From Candidatus Rifleibacteriota bacterium (GTDB taxonomy: Bacteria; Muiribacteriota; Ozemobacteria; Ozemobacterales; Ozemobacteraceae), in NCBI GenBank assembly GCA_051747585.1, contig JBNJGH010000097.1:1-12653 (forward strand): 12,653 bases of DNA, read 5' to 3'. The translations under genes and the position numbers were made by a program. Within the stretch, counting starts at the first letter, position 1. Each line of letters opens with the position of its first letter. Of this stretch, positions 566 to 12,653 are shown one piece after another. The notes beneath the pieces were generated by a model that saw only the letters and a list, made by a program, of their open reading frames with translations, was not told where the DNA came from and made no database searches.

Positions 566-718
566 GCCCGGTTCAGTAAGTTACGATAAATGTTGTAAAA
601 ATATTTAAACTATGGTTTAATCTTTGTCGAAGCATTGTTTTGTGTGTGAAAAAATAACACAAGTGTGGAATTTGAACCCTGATTTTATGTTCTTAGCACT
701 AAATAAGGGGTTTTAAAA

Positions 719-735
719 TTGGCACGGAAGTTGCT
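719..735 (+). promoter_or_regulatory. sigma54 (RpoN) -24/-12 promoter
   Basis: TTGGCACGGAAGTTGCT matches the consensus TGGCACG-N4-TTGCW exactly, with correct GG-N10-GC spacing (GG 721-722, GC 733-734). Predicted transcription start is about 746. Confidence 0.85.
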
Positions 736-745
736 CGTATATAAG

Positions 746-1060
746 TAGCTCATTGAAAAAAGAAAAAAAAGTGTTTTCCGGATCGTTTACAGCTAGATAA
801 TAGTTGGATCGCCGAATTGTCACAAAAATATTTAAAGCTCAAGTCACAGAATGAATCAGGCACGGTCATAATAATTAGATATGCAATATTTACAACTTAT
901 ATTGAAGAAAATACAACAGCATTAGTCAAAGTAAATTAACAGCATGATCCGGAAAGCTCTTTTTTATAAATTTAAGTCGTCTCTCTCAGATGACTTCAAG
1001 TATCCTCTCAAAAGATCCTCTCACTTTGTCCCCGGTTTTTTATTCCGGGGACTTTTTTTT
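746..1060 (+). ncRNA. Candidate sigma54-dependent non-coding RNA (~315 nt)
   Basis: Lies between the sigma54 promoter and a plus-strand terminator and contains no credible ORF. Helices 765-786/944-965 and 974-996 contain G-U pairs that form only on the plus strand. No family recognised. Confidence 0.6.
1028..1060 (+). terminator. Rho-independent terminator
   Basis: GTCCCCGG (1028-1035), 9-nt loop, CCGGGGAC (1045-1052), then T8 (1053-1060). The minus-strand reading has no U-tract. It overlaps the last codons of rseC. Confidence 0.8.
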
Positions 1061-1489
1061 GCAAATTTCTATCACTTTCAGACTGAGTTTATTGGCTGAT
1101 CTGGTTCTTGCTATAATCGCCAGCAAAAAAAAACCCAGGCCAAGAGCGGAAAAACCGGAGATAAATCTTGCCTGGTCTGTTAATTCAAAGCCAAAGGTTG
1201 AGCACAGGAAAGGAGTCAGCAGCAAACCCACAAAAAAAGAGGCAAGGGGAATACCAAATACCAGAATAGCCGCAAGAGTGCCTTCGCCGGGGTTTATATC
1301 AAGAATTACTTCGTCACCGATCCTGGGAGAAAATTCTCCTTTAAGAACGTCTATACGTTTAAGAGCAGATTTCTTTTCTCCGCCCAGCAAGCCGGTGCAA
1401 GCGTGACAACCGTTACATTCAGGTCTTGGTGAAACTTCTACAACAACCGATTCTTCATTAACCTTAACTACTTTGCCTGGTAAACTCAT
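1040..1489 (-). CDS. rseC: RseC/MucC family protein (SoxR-reducing system / Rnf-associated)
   Basis: 149 aa. N-terminal beta-type segment GKVVKV..VVVEV, Cys motif CNGCHAC, 'IGDEVIL' motif, then two hydrophobic helices starting 'AAILVFGIPL'. Located near the rnf operon. Confidence 0.85.
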   Translation of the reverse strand: MSLPGKVVKVNEESVVVEVSPRPECNGCHACTGLLGGEKKSALKRIDVLKGEFSPRIGDEVILDINPGEGTLAAILVFGIPLASFFVGLLLTPFLCSTFGFELTDQARFISGFSALGLGFFLLAIIARTRSANKLSLKVIEICKKKSPE

Positions 1490-1534
1490 ACTTATAATTG
1501 CTTTCTAATGTTATTTCTAAAATTTCTCTTTTTA

Positions 1535-1543
1535 TGGTACGCT
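1535..1543 (+). promoter_or_regulatory. Putative extended -10 promoter (leaderless transcript)
   Basis: TG-G-TACGCT fits TGnTAnnnT. The expected +1 falls on the ATG at 1550, and there is no Shine-Dalgarno upstream. Confidence 0.4.
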
Positions 1544-1549
1544 AAAATG

Positions 1550-2119
1550 ATGAAAATAAAAAGACTTTCTCTGCTGGTTTGTCTGCTTTTAACAACTTTT
1601 TCAAATCTTTTTGCACAGGGGACTTCTTATATCGGATTTCCGCCATCTGAACCAACAACAACTCAAAGTGATACAGATGGCGAAGCAGGTGCAAGTCGGC
1701 AACAGGAGGAAACAGCTACACAAACTCAGAATGTTGAGCCAGAATTTTCGGGTATTAATTCCTATGATCCATATATGGACAATCATTTGCATGCTCCACC
1801 ATCAGAAAAGCCTATAGGTCTTTTTGGCAAGCCGATCAAAGAAGTAGAAAAAATTCTCGACCAGTATGGTGCAAAAAATTATTCATATGCTTTTGGAAAA
1901 TACAGTCGCATGAGAATCTCTCCATACCTGCTTACGATGTATTTTAACCGGCAGAGAAGGCTTGGTGGTCTGGCAGTTGAGCCAATGGCACCTTTTAAAT
2001 ATATTGCGCCTTCAGCAAGAAAATTTTTTATTGGGCTGTTCTTGCAAAATCAGAGTATGGAAAAGTTTAAATCTATTATTTCAAGAAATCGCCTTGAACT
2101 TCGTTACAAGCCGGATTAA
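1550..2119 (+). CDS. Hypothetical exported protein
   Basis: ORF is open from 1508, but a start at 1547 or 1550 gives a typical signal peptide MKIKRLSLLVCLLLTTFSNLFA|QG. A low-complexity T/Q/E/S linker and an unrecognised ~100-aa domain follow. The stop overlaps the convergent plsY-like stop (TTAA 2116-2119). Confidence 0.75.
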   Translation: MKIKRLSLLVCLLLTTFSNLFAQGTSYIGFPPSEPTTTQSDTDGEAGASRQQEETATQTQNVEPEFSGINSYDPYMDNHLHAPPSEKPIGLFGKPIKEVEKILDQYGAKNYSYAFGKYSRMRISPYLLTMYFNRQRRLGGLAVEPMAPFKYIAPSARKFFIGLFLQNQSMEKFKSIISRNRLELRYKPD

Positions 2120-2766
2120 TTTTCAGTAAAAGAGTTTTCTGTTTTAGCCGGGTCTTTTGATTTTTTGATGCCCATATAGCTTTTTAATTCTTCTCTGTGT
2201 TCCCAGAATGTCCATAAAGACATGAAGGCCACTATATAAAGAAAAAACAGGTCTTCTGGTCTAATAGCGGTTACCCAGATTATTGAAAGAATGGGCATTG
2301 CGCCGGCAGCACTCAAGGCACCGGGTTTGGTCGATAAACCCCAGAAGGCAAGCCAGGCACCAATTAAAAATGCTATGATTGCCGGAACAGGAAGAAGTGT
2401 AGCCGTAACCCCAAAAGTCGGGGCAAGGCCACGTCCGCCTCTAAAGCCAAGAAAAGGTGAATTACAATGCCCTATAATTGTTAAGAGGCCTCCAAGACTC
2501 AGCCATACCCAATGGGTAAAGGTATCAGGGCCGAGAAAATAAACGGCAACCGGATATATAGTTAAAAAGCCTTTAAAGAAATCAAGTAAACAGATAAAAA
2601 GACCAAGAGGAATGCCAAGAATTTGAAACATTTCCCCTGGTGTCACTGTTGTTCTGGTGCCTGGGCTGATTAAAGTCTTACCGGTTTTCAATCTTCCGGC
2701 AATCTCTCCGAAAGGCAGGCTGCCAATCAGAAAGGATGACAGTAAATAAGCTATTACATGATTCAT
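2116..2766 (-). CDS. plsY: PlsY-family (glycerol-3-phosphate acyltransferase-like) membrane protein, divergent
   Basis: 216 aa polytopic protein with family marks YLLSSFLIGSLPFG, LLDFFKG, IIGHC.SPFLGFRGGRGLA and C-terminal HRE. Motifs 1 and 3 are degenerate. Starts 7 nt after the rnfB stop. Confidence 0.8.
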   Translation of the reverse strand: MNHVIAYLLSSFLIGSLPFGEIAGRLKTGKTLISPGTRTTVTPGEMFQILGIPLGLFICLLDFFKGFLTIYPVAVYFLGPDTFTHWVWLSLGGLLTIIGHCNSPFLGFRGGRGLAPTFGVTATLLPVPAIIAFLIGAWLAFWGLSTKPGALSAAGAMPILSIIWVTAIRPEDLFFLYIVAFMSLWTFWEHREELKSYMGIKKSKDPAKTENSFTEN

Positions 2767-2773
2767 TTAGTTA

Positions 2774-3787
2774 TTATTTGTTTTTCATTTCTATACATTT
2801 TTTTGGACATTTTTCAGCGCACATACCACAGCCTACACATTTGTCGGCTATAATTTCATGCTTTTCTTTTGGTTTTCCACCATCAACTGCATCGAACTTA
2901 CACACTTTATAACAAATGGTGCATTTAACGCAATCATCCTGATTTATTTCGGCTACTCTACCTTTAAATTCCGGTTGATCTTCCATAATAATTGAATTTT
3001 GCGGGCAAACAGCAACACATGCACCACATTGAACACATTTGCTGTAATCGATTTTTGCCAGATTATCTTCGATTGTTATTGCATCGTAGGCACAAACTCT
3101 TTTGCAAAGGCCACAGCCGATACAGCCAACTTTACATGCTTTACGTGTATCTGCACCTTTTTCGGTCGAGTTACATTTTACATGAACCTGCTGCTCTTTA
3201 TCGACCATTTCAATTAATTGTTTTGGGCAGGCAAGAACACATTTACCACAAGCGACACACTTTTCTTCATCGACTATTGGAAGATGTTGGGAACCAATTT
3301 TTATAGCATCAAACTTACATGCTTCAACGCACGAGCCAAAGCCCATACAGCGATGGGGGCATCGCCAGGGTCCACTTTGCAGCATTACCGCTGCCTGGCA
3401 GTTTTTTACGCCATTATATTCAAATTTCTGGTATTCTTCACTATCCGAACCATTGCATTTGACAAGAGCTGCTTTTACCACCGGCTTTTTCTCACCTTCA
3501 ATTTTTTCATTCAAACCAAGCAGGTCTTCAATTTTAGCGCGGTTTTCGGCAGATATTACCGGGCAGGCTGTAACAGGAACAGCATCTTTTACGATTGCTT
3601 CGGCAAGACCTGCGCAACCAGGATATCCGCAGCCTCCGCAGTTAGCACCGGGCAGCAATTCAAGGGTTTCTTCGATTTTTGGATCGACATAAACATAGAA
3701 TTTTTTGGCAGCATAAGACAGCAGGGCTCCAAATAAAAAACCCAGACAGCCTAAGACAATTATCGCTGTAAAAATTTGTGTAATCAT
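2774..3787 (-). CDS. rnfB: Rnf complex subunit B (long polyferredoxin type)
   Basis: 337 aa. N-terminal membrane anchor, LPGANCGGCGYPGC motif and six ferredoxin-type Cys motifs. Last gene of rnfCDGEAB. Confidence 0.95.
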   Translation of the reverse strand: MITQIFTAIIVLGCLGFLFGALLSYAAKKFYVYVDPKIEETLELLPGANCGGCGYPGCAGLAEAIVKDAVPVTACPVISAENRAKIEDLLGLNEKIEGEKKPVVKAALVKCNGSDSEEYQKFEYNGVKNCQAAVMLQSGPWRCPHRCMGFGSCVEACKFDAIKIGSQHLPIVDEEKCVACGKCVLACPKQLIEMVDKEQQVHVKCNSTEKGADTRKACKVGCIGCGLCKRVCAYDAITIEDNLAKIDYSKCVQCGACVAVCPQNSIIMEDQPEFKGRVAEINQDDCVKCTICYKVCKFDAVDGGKPKEKHEIIADKCVGCGMCAEKCPKKCIEMKNK

Positions 3788-3802
3788 AATTTAATAATTC
3801 CT

Positions 3803-4381
3803 TTAAACTAATCCAGAAAAGCCCATAAAAGCAGTTGCAAGCAAACCGGCAGTAACAAAGGTAATTGGCGCACCTTTCATTGCTTCGGGCACTTCAGCGA
3901 TTTCGAGTCGTTCTCTGACTCCGGCCATAAGAATTAATGCAAAGAAGAAACCTACACCCGCGCCGAAAGAGTTAACTGCTGATTCTAGAAGATTGTAGTT
4001 GTTTTTAATATTGAGTAATGCAGCGCCAAAAACGGCACAGTTGGTTGTAATCAGTGGTAAAAAGACGCCTAGTGACTGGTATAAAGCCGGCGCGGCTTTT
4101 CTGACGACCATCTCAACGAACTGAACCAGAGAAGCAATAACCAGGATAAAGGATATTGTCTGGAGATATTCAAGTTGAAACCTCACCAGAATAAAATGTT
4201 GAATGCCCCAGGTAACTACACCGGCCATAACCATAACAAATGTTACCGCAAAACCCATGCCAACAGCTGAATCAAGCTTGCTGGAAACACCAATGAAAGG
4301 ACATATCCCAAGAATTTGATTTAAAACAAAGTTTTCAATAAAAACTGCAACAATAAATATACTAATTAATCCGCTGGTCAT
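3803..4381 (-). CDS. rnfA: Rnf complex subunit A
   Basis: 192 aa hydrophobic protein with ENFVL..ILGICPF, LPLITTNCAV and GVRERL motifs. SD AAGGAG; 1-nt TAATG overlap with rnfE. Confidence 0.96.
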   Translation of the reverse strand: MTSGLISIFIVAVFIENFVLNQILGICPFIGVSSKLDSAVGMGFAVTFVMVMAGVVTWGIQHFILVRFQLEYLQTISFILVIASLVQFVEMVVRKAAPALYQSLGVFLPLITTNCAVFGAALLNIKNNYNLLESAVNSFGAGVGFFFALILMAGVRERLEIAEVPEAMKGAPITFVTAGLLATAFMGFSGLV

Positions 4382-4977
4382 TATGCATCTCCTTTTGCTT
4401 CAAGGTGACGTTTTAAAGCGATCAAAAGACCGAAAACAATAAATCCGCCTGGAGCCATGATCATTACTAATGCAGGGTCTGCACTGAAAAACGGAATGAC
4501 ATAGCCAAAAAGTTTGCCTTCCCCCAGAAGCTCACGGAAAAAAGCGATCATTACCAAAGCGATAGTGAAGCCTATACCCATTCCAAAAGCATCCATTATT
4601 GAAGGAAGAGTTTCGTTTTTGCTGGCAAATGATTCGGCTCGACCCAGAATTACACAGTTAACAACAATCAGGGGAATGAAAATGCCCAGACTTGAGGATA
4701 GGGCAGGGGAAAAAGCTGCTATCAGTTTGTCTATTATTGTTACAAAGGTTGCAATAATTACGATAAAAACAGGTATTCTAATTTTTGACGGAACTGTTTT
4801 GCGAATCAAAGATACGATTATGTTGCTTCCAAGTAAAACGAAAGTTGTAGCAACACCCATTCCTATTGCATTAAATAATGAAGAAGATACCGCCAGGGCC
4901 GGACAAAGACCAAGGGCAATTACAAAAATCGGATTTTCTTTCCAGAATCCTTTGGTTAAATGTTGTGTCAGAGTCAT
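4381..4977 (-). CDS. rnfE: Rnf complex subunit E
   Basis: 198 aa with ENP..LGLCPALAV, IPLIVVNCVILGRAE and RELLG motifs. ATGA overlap with rnfG; SD GGAGGT. Confidence 0.96.
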   Translation of the reverse strand: MTLTQHLTKGFWKENPIFVIALGLCPALAVSSSLFNAIGMGVATTFVLLGSNIIVSLIRKTVPSKIRIPVFIVIIATFVTIIDKLIAAFSPALSSSLGIFIPLIVVNCVILGRAESFASKNETLPSIMDAFGMGIGFTIALVMIAFFRELLGEGKLFGYVIPFFSADPALVMIMAPGGFIVFGLLIALKRHLEAKGDA

Positions 4978-5594
4978 TTTACACCTCCGGTTGCTGAAGC
5001 TGTAGAAGGTTCAGGGGGGCTGAGGCTTTCCAGCTGGGGTGCAATCAGATTGAATTTGGCCAGACTGTCTCGAATGCCTTTGCAGAAAGCCCTGGAGCTG
5101 ATAGTCGCTGCTGTAATCGCGTCTACATCGCCGCCATCCTGTTTAACCATAAATACAGGAGATTTTTTTTCTTTTATCAGTTCTTTGAAAGGATCCATAA
5201 ATACAGGGTCAGAAAGCTTGGTTCCCAAGCCTGGAGTTTCTTTTTGCGAAAGAATTTTTACACCGGCTATTTTTCCCTGGTTATCTATACCCACGACCAT
5301 TTCAATTGTTCCACCATAGCCTTTGGGATAGGCGTTTACAACAACCCCGGCTTTTTGATTCTCTTCTGTCCAGCCCGAACTGTAGCTCAAAGATTTTTTA
5401 TCATCTTCCAGCTTTAAATTATGCTGCTGAAATTTAGCTGCTTCGGGTAAAACTTCTTTGCGTGCTTTTTGCAGCAAAGCTTTTTTGTTCTGAGCAATTC
5501 TGGGAGCGGTAATTTTTTCGGTTACTGCCAGGAGGGCTCCAGCAATAGAGGCAATTACAAAAAGGAAAAGACCCATTTTAATCATGTCTTTCAT
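4974..5594 (-). CDS. rnfG: Rnf complex subunit G (covalent FMN)
   Basis: 206 aa with N-terminal anchor, GYGG, ETPGLG and FMN-attachment motif DAITAATISS. ATGA overlap with rnfD. Confidence 0.96.
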   Translation of the reverse strand: MKDMIKMGLFLFVIASIAGALLAVTEKITAPRIAQNKKALLQKARKEVLPEAAKFQQHNLKLEDDKKSLSYSSGWTEENQKAGVVVNAYPKGYGGTIEMVVGIDNQGKIAGVKILSQKETPGLGTKLSDPVFMDPFKELIKEKKSPVFMVKQDGGDVDAITAATISSRAFCKGIRDSLAKFNLIAPQLESLSPPEPSTASATGGVK

Positions 5595-6655
5595 GCTTGC
5601 ACCTCCTGCACTTTTTTAACGGTTCCGAATTTTTCCGGAACGGTAAAGCGGTCAATAATCGGAACAAGTGCATTCATAATTAGAATCGAGTAACAGACTC
5701 CTTCAGGGTAACCGCCTTTCATTCTTATTAAAAGCGTAATAGCTCCGCAGCCAAAACCAAAAATCAGTTGTCCCATGCCTGTCATCGGAGAGGTGACCAT
5801 ATCTGTGATCATAAAGATTGCTCCAATAATCAGGCCGCCGGTTAAGAAATGAAACAGGGCATATTCAAGTGAACCGCCAAAAATAAAGGCACCACCAGCA
5901 ACTGTAGCTATCATGGCGACAGGAGCCTGCCAGGTTATATGGCCTCTGATCAGCAGGTAAAGACCGCCGATTAAAAGAGCCAATTTTGATGTTTCTCCCA
6001 GGGAGCCACTGAAATTAAGGCCAAGGAAAAGGTCGGAAAAGCTTACCTGTAGCTGTTGCATTGTATAAGTAACAAGACTGGTGCCCTGTTCGGCAAGTCT
6101 TGACATGAGTTCTGGATCGTTTGCGGATTCCTTTAGAATTCCTAATGGAGTGGCACAGGTTAAAGCATCTGCAGTTTTTTCAACTCCATTGGGTTTCAGC
6201 CAGGTTGTCATATAAACGGGCCAACTGGCCAGCAACATAGCCCTGGCAACATGAGCAGGATTAAAAATGTTCTGGCCCAGGCCGCCATAAACCTGTTTCC
6301 CTAGAGAAATTGCAACAATTCCACCGATGAAGGCTACCCACCATGGCAGAGCTGCAGGTAGACAAAAAGCGAGCAACAGACCTGTTACTATTGCGCTGCC
6401 GTCAGATATTGTTGAAGGCTGTTTTAAAAGAAATTTTTGAATGAAATATTCAGTTATAACTGCTCCAAGTATCGACGCGACAATAACCAGGGCAGCTTTA
6501 CCTCTAAAGTTGTATAAAGCCATTGCCAGAGCAGGAATAAGTGCAATGTTTACATCCCACATTACTTTGGCTGCGGTCATATTGTCATGAAGATGTGGTG
6601 AGCTGGTGACCATTAGCTGATCTACTTTAGATAAAGGCTGTTTTTCTTTGTTCAT
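5591..6655 (-). CDS. rnfD: Rnf complex subunit D
   Basis: 354 aa with SSPH, GGLGQNIFNPA, FMN motif DALTCATPL, GSLGETS, TDMVTSP and GGYPEG. Confidence 0.96.
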   Translation of the reverse strand: MNKEKQPLSKVDQLMVTSSPHLHDNMTAAKVMWDVNIALIPALAMALYNFRGKAALVIVASILGAVITEYFIQKFLLKQPSTISDGSAIVTGLLLAFCLPAALPWWVAFIGGIVAISLGKQVYGGLGQNIFNPAHVARAMLLASWPVYMTTWLKPNGVEKTADALTCATPLGILKESANDPELMSRLAEQGTSLVTYTMQQLQVSFSDLFLGLNFSGSLGETSKLALLIGGLYLLIRGHITWQAPVAMIATVAGGAFIFGGSLEYALFHFLTGGLIIGAIFMITDMVTSPMTGMGQLIFGFGCGAITLLIRMKGGYPEGVCYSILIMNALVPIIDRFTVPEKFGTVKKVQEVQA

Positions 6656-6672
6656 CTCTATCTTTCCTTAAA

Positions 6673-7998
6673 TTATTTAGCTTTTTTTTGCTCGGCCATT
6701 ACCATCTTTTTACCCATTTTAAAGGTTTGAATAAGAGGAAGTCCGGAGGGGCATGTGTAAGCGCAGCAGCCACATTCCATACAATCAAGAATGCCCATTT
6801 TATCTGCTGCTTCCCATTTTTTGCTGTCAACCAGCCTTTTTAACTGTTGGGGCATAAGTCCCATGGGGCATGCTCTGATGCACCTGCCGCATCTAAGGCA
6901 GGGCGACTGGGGTACAGTTTGGGCTTCGTTTTTATCCCATACAAGTATCCCGCTTGTGCCTTTAATTATGGGAATATTGAGATCAAATAAAGCAAAACCC
7001 ATCATGGGACCACCCATAATTACTTTTTCGGGGGGGATATCTTCTTTGAGTCCGCCGGCCATTTCAATAAATTCAGCGACAGTTGTACCTATTCGCACCC
7101 GATAGTTTCCGGGATTTTTTACACAATTGCCGGCCAGGGTGACAACTCGTTCGATTAAAGGTTTCCGGCAATTTACCGCATCTGCTATTGCTGCGGCTGT
7201 GGCGACGTTCTGAACAACGACGCCAATATCCATCGGTAAACCTCCAGATGGCACCTCTTTGCCAAGACAGGCTTTAATTAACTGTTTTTCGCCGCCCTGT
7301 GGGTATTTAACTCTTAGAGGTTGAACTTCAATATTTTCTTCACCTTCGACTTTTTTCTCCATTAATTCAAGGGCGTCAGGCTTATTGTTTTCAATTCCAA
7401 TAATGCCTTTTTCAGCATTGAGTATTTTTATAATAAGCTTGAGACCTGCAATAATCTTTTCAGGCTCCTCGAGCATCAAGCGGTGGTCTGAGGTTAAAGC
7501 TGGCTCACATTCGACACCGTTTAAAATGACGGTATCTATCGGCTTGTTTTCGGGCGGAGAAAGTTTCACATGCGTAGGAAAGGTTGCTCCGCCAAGTCCT
7601 ACCATTCCAGAATTTTGAATTCTGTTTTTAATTTCTTCTACACCCAGATTAAAACCATTTTCTTCTTTATATTCAGGCTCTGCAATTTCAGGATTTCTTT
7701 CAATAACAAGTGCCGGCGTTGGAACGCCGAAAGGATGCATAAAATTACCAGAGCCAATTATCTTACCCGAAATCGTTGCATTTATACTTGCAGAAACAAA
7801 TCCACCCGGTTTTGCAATAATCTGACCGGTTTCTACTTTTTCGGTGATTTTAAAACAGGGTTTTGCCGGTGCACCAATATGTTGGGAAACATGTAGTATA
7901 ACCTTATCGGGAAGAGGCAGGTCAACAATACTTTTATCTTCTGTATTTTTTAATTCCGGTGGGTGCAGACCACCTTTAAATGTTTTGATAGCAAGCAT
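6673..7998 (-). CDS. rnfC: Rnf complex subunit C (NAD/FMN binding, 2x[4Fe-4S])
   Basis: 441 aa with FKGGLHP, QHIGAPA, GLGGATFPTHVK, NGVECEP, KYPQGGEKQLI, GGPMMG, CLRCGRCIRACP and CMECGCCAYTCP. SD AGGAGA. Confidence 0.97.
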   Translation of the reverse strand: MLAIKTFKGGLHPPELKNTEDKSIVDLPLPDKVILHVSQHIGAPAKPCFKITEKVETGQIIAKPGGFVSASINATISGKIIGSGNFMHPFGVPTPALVIERNPEIAEPEYKEENGFNLGVEEIKNRIQNSGMVGLGGATFPTHVKLSPPENKPIDTVILNGVECEPALTSDHRLMLEEPEKIIAGLKLIIKILNAEKGIIGIENNKPDALELMEKKVEGEENIEVQPLRVKYPQGGEKQLIKACLGKEVPSGGLPMDIGVVVQNVATAAAIADAVNCRKPLIERVVTLAGNCVKNPGNYRVRIGTTVAEFIEMAGGLKEDIPPEKVIMGGPMMGFALFDLNIPIIKGTSGILVWDKNEAQTVPQSPCLRCGRCIRACPMGLMPQQLKRLVDSKKWEAADKMGILDCMECGCCAYTCPSGLPLIQTFKMGKKMVMAEQKKAK

Positions 7999-10398: not shown

Positions 10399-12653
10399 GT
10401 GGAATTTTTCTCGAATTTAAAAATCAAAACCAGACTCTTTTTAACAATGATAATTGTTTCTCTGATTTTGCTTGTCCTTACTTTTTATACTTCTGAAAAA
10501 ATCAGAGACGCAGTTAAAAGTCAGATTCCTTTACAGATAATAGCGATATTGAATTCTGAAGCATCAAAGATTTCATCTACTGTTGCTTCTTACGAAAGAA
10601 CCGCTGAGTATGTTTCCAATCTTAATTCTGTTGTTCAGTTCCTTTCCTGGATAGAACAGGCTCCTGATCAGATTGATCTTATTAATCAATGGAAAAGGGT
10701 TTTATCTACGCCGGTAGAAGGATTGCTGATGAAAAAAATGGAAGATACGCCATCTGATCTTGTAGAGATCGCTATTCTTGATAATGACGGTAAAACTCTT
10801 TTTAGAATGGGTCCCAATGGAAAAGAGTTACCCCATATAGATACGCCGTATGAGAAGTATGTTACAGTTAAGATGGACAATAGCTTCGAAACTGAAGGGG
10901 TTTATAAAACACCTGTTATGTTTCAAGAGCTGCAAGATGATTATAAAGAAAGAGTTTTTTATGTTTGTAAGCCGGTAAACCATTTAAAAAAAACAATCGG
11001 AATTGTTTTAGTTGGTGTAAGTCTTGAACGATTGATGGAAAACGTGCCAATGTCTTTAACTACCATTGGCGGAAAAAGTGCAGTGGTTTCAAATAATCCT
11101 GCTCAAAATGGTTTTTATCTTGCTCACAATAATTTTGAGAATATTCTAGATCCACAGAAAAATATTTTCTTGAATTCTGGCGACCCGGAACTTCAGGACC
11201 ATGCAGATAATATTATCAATAACAAAAGCGGTTTTCGCAAATTTTTAAGCGGTTCAAAATCAAATATTTTTATTGCTGCTTCTGCCATTCAGGATACCAG
11301 CTGGGTTCTTCTATCTCTTGTAGATACTCAGGGTATGATGGGAGCATTAAACAATGCGCAAAACTTTTCCCTCTTTTTGATCATCTTCGGCCTTGTTGTA
11401 ATGACTGGCATAACAATGATTGTTATAAACGGTGTGGTTAAACAGATTCGCGGAGTTTCCCAGGGCCTTGAAGAGATATCCAGAGGCCGTGGTGATTTGA
11501 CCCGTCGTCTTGCAATTGTAGGTAAAGATGAATTAACAGAGGTTTCAGAAAGATTTAATCGTTTTATCGGGTATATTCAGCGCTTATTGTTGCAAATTCA
11601 AGATGTTATCAATCGCTTATCCAACATGGCAAACACTATTTCGACTTTGACTTTTCAATCTAATGAATCGATTCAAAACATTACCGGTAATACACAGAGA
11701 ATTACCAAGGCCTCAAAAGATTCGGCCACTACCCTTGAATCAACGGCAGCTGCAATTGAAGAAATTTCAGCCAATTCGCAACTTATTGCCAAAAGATCGA
11801 ATCGAGCTTATGAAGAATCTGTTCAGAACAGGCTTAAAGCTACTCAGGGTATGGAGTCGGTAAGGGAAGCATCGACAACAATTAAAGAAATTGAACGTGC
11901 GGTTGGCGACTCATCCAGAGTGCTTGAAGAACTCAAAAACCAGTCAAGAAAGATTGGAAAAATTGTATTAACCATCACTGCTATTTCTCGACAGACAAAC
12001 CTTCTTGCTCTTAATGCCTCGATTGAAGCCGCCAGAGCAGGGGAGCAGGGCCGAGGTTTTGTTGTTGTAGCCGCAAATGTTAAAAAACTGGCAGAGCAAA
12101 GTGCTAAAGCGGCTGAAGAAATTGGCGCTCTTATCGGTGAAATTCAACACAAAACCAATAAGGCCGTTGAGGAAATGGGATTTGGTCGAGAAAGAGTTCA
12201 AGAAGGGGTTAAAATTATTAACCAGGCCGGAGCATACCTGGATGAAATTGGTATGGCTTCTGAAAGCGTTAATGTTCAGGTTCAGGATATCAGTAAATCT
12301 TCGGTAGAACAAAGCCGCAATATTGAAGCAATCAGTCTTTCTATTGAAAATCTTTCTATTACAACTAAAACCACTACCAGAGAGGTCGATGGGGTTCTAA
12401 GTTCATTGAAATCTCAGAGAGATTCAATTCAGAATATGGCTAAAATTACCAAACATCTTAGTATGGTTGCCGATGAACTCAATCGTATGCTGGCCCACTT
12501 CGTGCTCGAAACTCATGAATTAGTTGAAGAAGAACCCGAAGAAGAAATAGAAGATATCGAAGATGCTGAAACAGTAGAAAATGAAGAAGAAGAAGAAGAA
12601 GAAGAAATAGAAAAGCCTGAGAATGAAAAGCCTTCGACAAAAGCAAAGCGCAA
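10399..12653 (+). CDS. Methyl-accepting chemotaxis protein (TM - Cache-like sensor - TM - HAMP - signalling domain), 3'-partial
   Basis: Not in the ORF track. GTG at 10399 after SD GGAG (10385-10388); my translation stays open to the window end. [16 protein letters not shown]1, extracytoplasmic sensor, TM2, HAMP ([22 protein letters not shown]) and signature [23 protein letters not shown]. Confidence 0.95.
12583..12606 (+). repeat. (GAA)8 trinucleotide tract encoding poly-Glu in the chemoreceptor tail
   Basis: Eight consecutive in-frame GAA codons within an acidic low-complexity tail. Confidence 0.85.

Follow-up and report, generated by a model that had tools for sequence, protein, structure and literature searches.

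A conserved, multicopy non-coding RNA with twin anti-Shine-Dalgarno-like repeats in one family of Riflebacteria

A non-coding RNA with a C/U-rich doublet

We found that the window, that is, the whole 12,653-nucleotide stretch of DNA analysed here, carries a gene, predicted on the plus strand, for a non-coding RNA of ~315 nt, and it is close to certain that this RNA represents a real, conserved, multicopy non-coding RNA family across one family of Riflebacteria. Judged from sequence, the RNA is a likely sigma-54-dependent transcript that would probably mask the ribosome-binding sites (RBS) of stress-signalling genes; it is probably an Hfq-aided, Qrr-like base-pairing RNA, in which the two anti-RBS seeds of a conserved core pair with ribosome-binding sites. 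The features of the locus are as follows:

518-533 and 549-564: two TGTG(T/C)GAAAA..CAC copies, putative activator (bEBP) sites
643..661: proximal putative activator site TGTGTGAAAAAATAACACA, conserved in homologues
720..735, plus strand: sigma-54 (-24/-12) promoter TGGCAC-N5-TTGCT, predicted start about 746-747
747..1060, plus strand: non-coding RNA, ~315 nt (fold, RNA-library contigs)
747..759, plus strand: boxA-like element AGCTCATTGAAAA, 5' end of the RNA
765..786, plus strand: 5' arm of the closing stem, pairing with 944-965 (predicted fold)
787..943, plus strand: variable A/C-rich loop with repeated GUCAC(A)/ACAGCA words
944..965, plus strand: 3' arm of the closing stem (predicted fold, arm comparison)
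974..996, plus strand: small hairpin, stem AAGTCGTCT (974-982) / AGATGACTT (988-996), loop CTCTC (983-987)
1002-1010 and 1015-1023, plus strand: two ATCCTCTCA repeats
1003..1026, plus strand: invariant 24-nt core UCCUCUCAAAAGAUCCUCUCACUU, read UCCUCUCA-AAAG-AUCCUCUCA-CUU, with two predicted seeds
1028..1060, plus strand: intrinsic terminator, 8-bp stem (1028-1035/1045-1052) and U8 (fold, covariation)
1040..1489, minus strand: rseC/mucC-family gene (PF04246), end of a convergent rnf-like cluster, with its stop codon inside the terminator loop

The original prediction had proposed a "triple CUCUCA" module, made up of a CUCUC hairpin loop and two downstream repeats, as the working part of a candidate RNA. 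The letters and positions given for hairpin and repeats were correct, and the view that the module is a functional part of a real non-coding RNA was borne out, as the repeats are the most conserved segments, are predicted to be single-stranded and lie just before the terminator. The hairpin loop did not qualify as a third copy, however: of 63 distinct homologues, only 6 have CUCUC within the 43 nt that precede the core, which leaves a doublet rather than a triplet. Not covered by that earlier description were the sigma-54 promoter with its activator-like sites further upstream, the boxA, the closing stem and the paralogues.

Conservation of the repeats and fold of the RNA

Alignment of 45 copies revealed 24 invariant columns (1003-1026) in all 45; since 21 of these 24 nt formed the search pattern, the unbiased test of conservation is a scan allowing three mismatches, which returned 75 matches in the family, 72 of them nevertheless identical to the 21-nt pattern. 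By itself the repeat is only mildly unusual: exact repeats of at least 9 nt with a period of 9-20 were present in 48 of 2000 dinucleotide shuffles and in 80 of 1446 genomic windows; we regard it as real because it is conserved, not because it is rare by itself. Repeated C/U-rich motifs are also known from RNAIII, RsaE and RepG. In the predicted ensemble, the hairpin at 974-996 is firmly paired with an open loop, and the repeats are not sequestered, their mean unpaired probabilities being 0.83 and 0.91 in the window RNA and 0.73 and 0.84 for the two AUCCUCUCA copies over 69 family copies. Conservation in homologues thus applies to the repeats and the core but not to the hairpin loop: the hairpin stem is retained with altered sequences, the loop varies (CCCC, AACCCC, UAAC, UUC and others), and some copies are missing the hairpin.

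The fold of 748-1060 (z = -3.98) consists of a long closing stem, an open loop, the hairpin, the unpaired core and the terminator. Both arms of the closing stem differ in sequence between lineages, and all but one of 65 copies (64) form an arm duplex of -15 kcal/mol or better. The mean is -28.3 kcal/mol when each arm is combined with its own partner and -19.1 when arms are swapped, although the own arm is strictly best in only 6 of 65 copies because close kin share arms. The loop ranges from nearly none to ~280 nt across the family, and the RNA is about 140-420 nt long in promoter-bearing copies. In the terminator, both-sided changes were found in two of five consensus pairs; it was absent from the list of the consensus scanner because its 9-nt loop exceeds the scanner limit of 8. 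A U8 terminator right after the core resembles those of Hfq-type small RNAs.

Positions of about 756-1034 are covered by contigs of four RNA libraries, which come from three studies; 300-703 is bare, rseC has thin coverage only, and one contig contains the hairpin of a paralogue on contig C37 of the same genome (G000); as the runs were selected for containing the stretch, these contigs speak for presence only, not for level, strand or ends. One contig from one run joins position 953 to 774, in the closing-stem arms, which may represent a circle or a library artefact.

Two candidate small proteins (817-939 and 944-1099) were rejected, having no Pfam match and an ORF length that is inconsistent across copies; the longest internal ORF varies from 0 to 81 codons over 69 copies. 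Maturation of the long stem by canonical RNase III was set aside, since that enzyme (PF14622) was found in only 2 of 26 family genomes and not in G000. A short PF00636 protein, likely Mini-III, is present in G000 and in all 13 family genomes tested, and other families of the phylum have mostly full-length-sized RNase III matches.

Distribution and copy number

An exact scan for the core in 185,579 genomes returned 78 matches at 73 loci. Where informative, the record titles were mostly Riflebacteria or Ozemobacteraceae, and the few loci under other submitter labels had the same architecture and neighbours. With up to three mismatches, the pattern made of the first 21 nt of the core was matched in 45 of 50 genomes of the family (f1), each with one to four exact copies, and the five f1 genomes without a match are 64-86% complete. 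Outside f1 in the same phylum, 5 of 36 genomes matched, each with two or three mismatches; the three of these inspected were not accepted as members, as they were without the family architecture and scored 14-17 bits, compared with 32-86 bits for members.

A sigma-54 motif is located within 450 nt upstream of 69 of the 78 core matches, and the other nine divide into five short forms, a single copy in which no motif matched, and three matches attributed to chance. The chance matches (L043, L053 and L065, exact matches to the A3 pattern) have neither promoter nor terminator and were removed before conservation was counted. At three loci, the core with an A3 linker and the terminator closes the 3' end of an activator-ptsN-rsbW operon, and at two further loci a short core-plus-terminator form is present without a sigma-54 motif; all five short forms score 32-44 bits with the family model, suggesting that the core is able to stand alone, that the linker is able to shorten and that the core is tied to the ptsN operon.

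The C37 paralogue in G000 has its own promoter. In other genomes, tandem arrays of two or three complete units, each with its own promoter, were observed at G014:C2:3614900-3615920 and on G009:C39, G012:C9 and G023:C91, and in one of the G012 copies the core differs at two positions. A search of Rfam 15 revealed no family at the gathering threshold, the best being PrrF (25.1 of 90 bits, E 1), followed by suhB (20.9 of 41) and anti-hemB (18.5 of 49.5).

Promoter, putative activator and boxA

Read by eye, the TGTG(T/C)GAAAA..CAC motif is present upstream of most family copies and before ptsN-like genes, and BLAST located a TGTGTGAAAAAATAACACA-type site upstream of the C37 paralogue as well. The genome encodes 13 enhancer-binding proteins, and rpoN was recognised by its RpoN-box motif only. 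An operon encoding a PTS EIIA (ptsN-like) protein, an RsbW-like protein and ndk directly follows a gene for a REC-AAA+-HTH (NtrC-type activator) protein and is preceded by the same upstream motif and a sigma-54 site; in the 30 family loci shown, sigma-54-like and activator-like motifs were seen by eye before ptsN, with ndk following in 21. Because this adjoining operon carries the same promoter design, we infer that the REC-AAA+-HTH protein encoded just upstream of it may be the activator; the RNA is likely transcribed by sigma-54 RNA polymerase together with an NtrC-type activator. In addition, two activator-like motifs and a sigma-54 site precede two TPR-like envelope genes at G000:C75, about 984-1136, a promoter that likely belongs to the same regulon as the RNA.

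The boxA-like element is present in 64 of 67 copies, and in 59 of these its distance to the -24 element is 28-31 nt. The form seen most often, GTTCTTTGAAAA, is that of the rRNA spacer boxA of family genome G014, whose rRNA leaders contain a similar element. The genome also has nusB, and genes that we take to be rho, rpsJ, nusG and suhB were assigned from sequence motifs only. It may be that boxA recruits NusB/S10, by which a long untranslated C-rich RNA would escape Rho termination, and that the closing stem shields the 5' end of the RNA. The rpsJ (S10/NusE) start, GGAGGAUUUU (G000:C60:12843-13154), ranks in the top 2% for core pairing; as S10 binds boxA, pairing between rpsJ and the core would be a candidate feedback loop. 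The family's GYTC(T/A)TTGA(A/T)AA matches the boxA of its own rRNA and resembles the gamma-proteobacterial consensus GYTCTTTAANA, which comes from a survey that, by its own account, excluded non-coding RNAs (PMC5725501); unlike the rRNA and suhB boxA elements described there, the one found here heads a small regulatory RNA. We found no publication, judged by title, describing a small RNA headed by boxA, and such an RNA would extend Nus-factor antitermination beyond rRNA and the leaders of protein genes.

Candidate targets

The core complements a rare RBS variant, GAGAGGA, found in 9 of 336 GAGGA starts, most starts (taken from a simple in-house caller) being AGGAG/GGAGG. An altered 16S anti-Shine-Dalgarno sequence was rejected as an explanation, since the 16S rRNAs of G014 and G051 end in GAUCACCUCCUUU and AGGAG/GGAGG dominate the starts. 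At score 22, the genome has 27 complementary starts, compared with 19.8 +/- 13.1 for shuffled cores, which is no excess; kept sites showed none either between G000 and G014 (8 of 538 orthologue pairs, drawn from 1.6 of 5.2 Mb, versus 14.4 +/- 11.8). Among 123 ORFs from 18 fully listed genomes and single loci, none whose start has a perfect UGAGAGGA site recurred throughout the family, nor was a recurring target row for a longer seed seen by eye in 51 genomes. Two single candidates were discarded: a 250-aa gene with UGAGAGGAG in five genomes, which has no Pfam or NCBIfam match and an ordinary GGAG(G) Shine-Dalgarno sequence, and whose TGA may be an upstream stop; and a nucleotidyltransferase match between G000 and G014, whose site overlaps upstream coding sequence. 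The anti-Shine-Dalgarno reading of the original prediction is the best-supported candidate, although complementary starts are enriched not genome-wide but in a few signalling-gene families only, chosen after the fact.

At strong sites in the own genome, signalling genes, a set whose kinase class includes non-kinase GHKL proteins and from which the PAS model was left out, are enriched: they make up 10 of 89, compared with 105 of 2929 (p 0.002-0.005). The enrichment of partner-switching genes is weak (p 0.04-0.09). Three candidates, all chosen after the fact and among kin that are not independent, stand out, with predicted seed duplexes of -12 to -18 kcal/mol. One is a REC-like/HATPase_c_2/cNMP (anti-sigma-kinase-like) family, in which 13 of the 22 starts contain GAG(A/G)GG, over four genera and with changed flanks, compared with 0-17% in 11 control orthologue groups and 1.6% of own-genome starts (shuffle p 0.003-0.02); the gene was found in only 21 of 41 genomes. 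Another is an RsbU-like REC-SpoIIE phosphatase, with an orthologue in six genomes of two genera, a strong site in five of five orthologues (shuffle p 0.002 or less) and none in its paralogues. The STAS anti-anti-sigma gene (TIGR00377) was found in 45 of 51 genomes. Among 20 of its starts newly fetched from 43 other matches, UGGGAGG(A/G) is present in 8, compared with 9 of 444 own GGAGG starts, and the 16S-optimal AGGAGG in none, compared with 192 of 444; however, 12 of the 20 scored strongly, which is not significant against shuffles (p 0.075-0.22), and the match, which is weak in genera g6, g8 and g12, depends on a G-U pair within a GGAGG of the ordinary kind. A long duplex with a hairpin upstream of the STAS gene was rejected, as the hairpin overlaps a likely -35/-10 promoter and is not conserved family-wide.

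These three candidates, and also the co-regulated RsbW-like gene, are parts of partner-switching modules, and the own genome has 14 sigma-70-family matches. One of the two UCCUCUCA seeds would likely pair with an RBS of the (U)G(A/G)GAGGA type and repress translation, with the help of Hfq; the putative targets are the mRNAs of the near-universal STAS anti-anti-sigma protein, the RsbU-like phosphatase and the REC-like/HATPase_c_2/cNMP protein. The RNA would thereby tune an alternative-sigma switch when the sigma-54 regulon fires. A bolder reading, possible but tentative, is that of a two-module RNA resembling a miniature rRNA operon, with a sigma-54 start, a Nus-loading boxA, a stalk that closes a protein-binding loop, and a twin anti-RBS seed that silences the anti-anti-sigma gene and its phosphatase/kinase partners. 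If true, it would constitute a sigma-54-to-alternative-sigma switch acting through an antiterminated small RNA, in a phylum without a described RNA regulator.

Alternative functions

Simple seed pairing leaves the fully invariant linker and the repeated loop words unexplained, and both would fit a CrcZ/CsrB-like sponge, in which the words of the closed A/C-rich loop and the fixed-spacing doublet titrate an RNA-binding protein such as Hfq, a KH-domain protein or, via boxA, NusB/S10. RNA length, closing stem and open A/C-rich loop resemble those of sponges, GUCAC is enriched (58 occurrences, spread over 38 of 60 loops, where mononucleotide shuffles give an expectation of 6.1; kin are not independent), and the 123-ORF search for perfect sites found no universal mRNA target. 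The loop, however, is short or missing in several copies (about 140-180 nt, and the core-only forms) while the core is unchanged, and sponges usually retain many short sites rather than one invariant 24-mer. CsrA, although present in the genome, is an unlikely partner, as the core has no GGA, and none of the enriched loop k-mers contains this word, many copies of which in hairpin loops mark the CsrB/RsmZ type. In a comparison with the CrcZ type, the loop is A/C-rich but its enriched words are GUCAC/ACAGCA, and it is dispensable in some copies. CrcZ is likewise RpoN- and activator-dependent and redundant with a paralogue, as described in PMC5113210. We consider the sponge unlikely on balance, though worth keeping in mind.

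Total invariance of the core with no family-wide start-site target would also be expected if the core bound a second non-coding RNA, either a sponge or a partner small RNA, or paired with mRNA sites away from starts, which scans centred on starts would miss. G000 has two hfq genes (C45:10932-11105 and C6:9977-10150, the second with a long basic C-terminal tail), and directly after the first, on the minus strand at C45, about 10600-10720, lies a sigma-54-like promoter with a short structured unit behind it that ends in a U-tract terminator, and which is thus another candidate small RNA. This unit could be such a partner, but it pairs weakly with the core (-8.9 kcal/mol), and of the only 43 UGAGAGGA 8-mers in the genome none stands out as a non-coding partner, which makes this explanation improbable. 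Still less credible is an RNA associated with ribosomes or pre-rRNA, whose boxA and stalk mimic an rRNA leader and whose UCCUCUC(A) pairs with rRNA GAGA tetraloops, which we take to be those of 16S helix 12 (UGAGAGG) and the 23S sarcin-ricin loop (GAGAGGA): the boxA is identical to the rRNA spacer boxA and both 7-mers are present in G014 rRNA, but these rRNAs contain 23% of all possible 7-mers, no match is longer than 7-8 nt, and both sites are tight hairpins. A function in cis, as terminator of or antisense to the convergent rnf-rseC transcript, suggested by the rseC stop codon within the terminator loop and by the many long-stem copies adjoining rseC, is the least probable of all; a cis role at rseC is already largely refuted by the unlinked copies, namely the C37 paralogue, many copies elsewhere and tandem arrays of two or three, and the gap between RNA and rseC varies by hundreds of bases between homologues. 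Pairing with ribosome-binding sites is the best reading, ranked ahead of a protein sponge, a partner RNA or non-start site, rRNA binding and a cis role.

Comparison with known regulatory RNAs

On RBS pairing as the preferred reading, the closest parallels are Qrr and CrcZ. Like the RNA described here, Vibrio Qrr1-5 are reported to depend on sigma-54 and an enhancer-binding response regulator, to exist in several redundant copies, one of them linked to the activator gene, and to have a conserved internal pairing core, a 5' stability stem and an intrinsic terminator (PMC8043402, PMC3730234). At the level of sequence alone, the -24/-12 promoter with activator-like sites and the paralogues with an invariant core are of the Qrr type; unlike Qrr, the RNA has no Rfam Qrr match, is ~3x longer, belongs to another phylum and has a boxA, a closing stem, a variable loop and a tandem anti-RBS doublet as seed. 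Pseudomonas CrcZ/CrcY, as described in PMC5113210, are similarly dependent on RpoN and an activator, long and present as paralogues, and can arise from the 3' end of the activator operon; however, CrcZ sequesters Hfq/Crc, whereas the conserved part here is the invariant C/U core and not an A-rich loop. The RNA thus appears to work like Qrr and to have a promoter logic in common with CrcZ, and is a member of neither family.

Looser parallels may be drawn with three other RNAs. Sinorhizobium NfeR1 also has repeated C/U-rich motifs and is described as pairing with the start region of the signalling mRNA ntrB, being repressed by NtrC and activated by LsrB (PMC10746234); the motifs of the RNA described here form part of a linear stretch, have the sequence UCCUCUCA and are complementary to an RBS variant that is rare. 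Myxococcus Pxr, with a long precursor and short active forms (PMC10217877), is a possible parallel, although there is no Rfam sequence match to it. Staphylococcus aureus Teg16 is predicted to pair with the start of the anti-anti-sigma gene rsbV (PMC13252486, preprint); it is unrelated in organism and sequence, and the available text of the preprint mentions neither sigma-54 nor boxA.

We found no paper on small or non-coding RNAs of Riflebacteria in a search that covered few subscription journals, and supplements of comparative RNA screens could list the element. The RNA would thus be the first Riflebacteria regulatory RNA family with a promoter, a likely activator and candidate targets. With an invariant 24-mer, short natural variants and named 5' UTRs, its mechanism is testable in an Escherichia coli reporter without culturing the host.

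Other elements of the window

The minus strand at 1040-7998 contains an rnf-like electron-transport cluster, with subunits that were named by eye from their sequence; genes of the plsY and rseC families come after it. In addition, a cluster of palindromes of the GTCATTGCGAGGAGC..GACGAAGCAATCT type, with CCCTGAGCGGAGTCGAAGGG and TTCGACTACGCTCA, which we presume to be REP-like, is located at 137-315, and a like palindrome element was observed in the rRNA spacer of G051 (L196).
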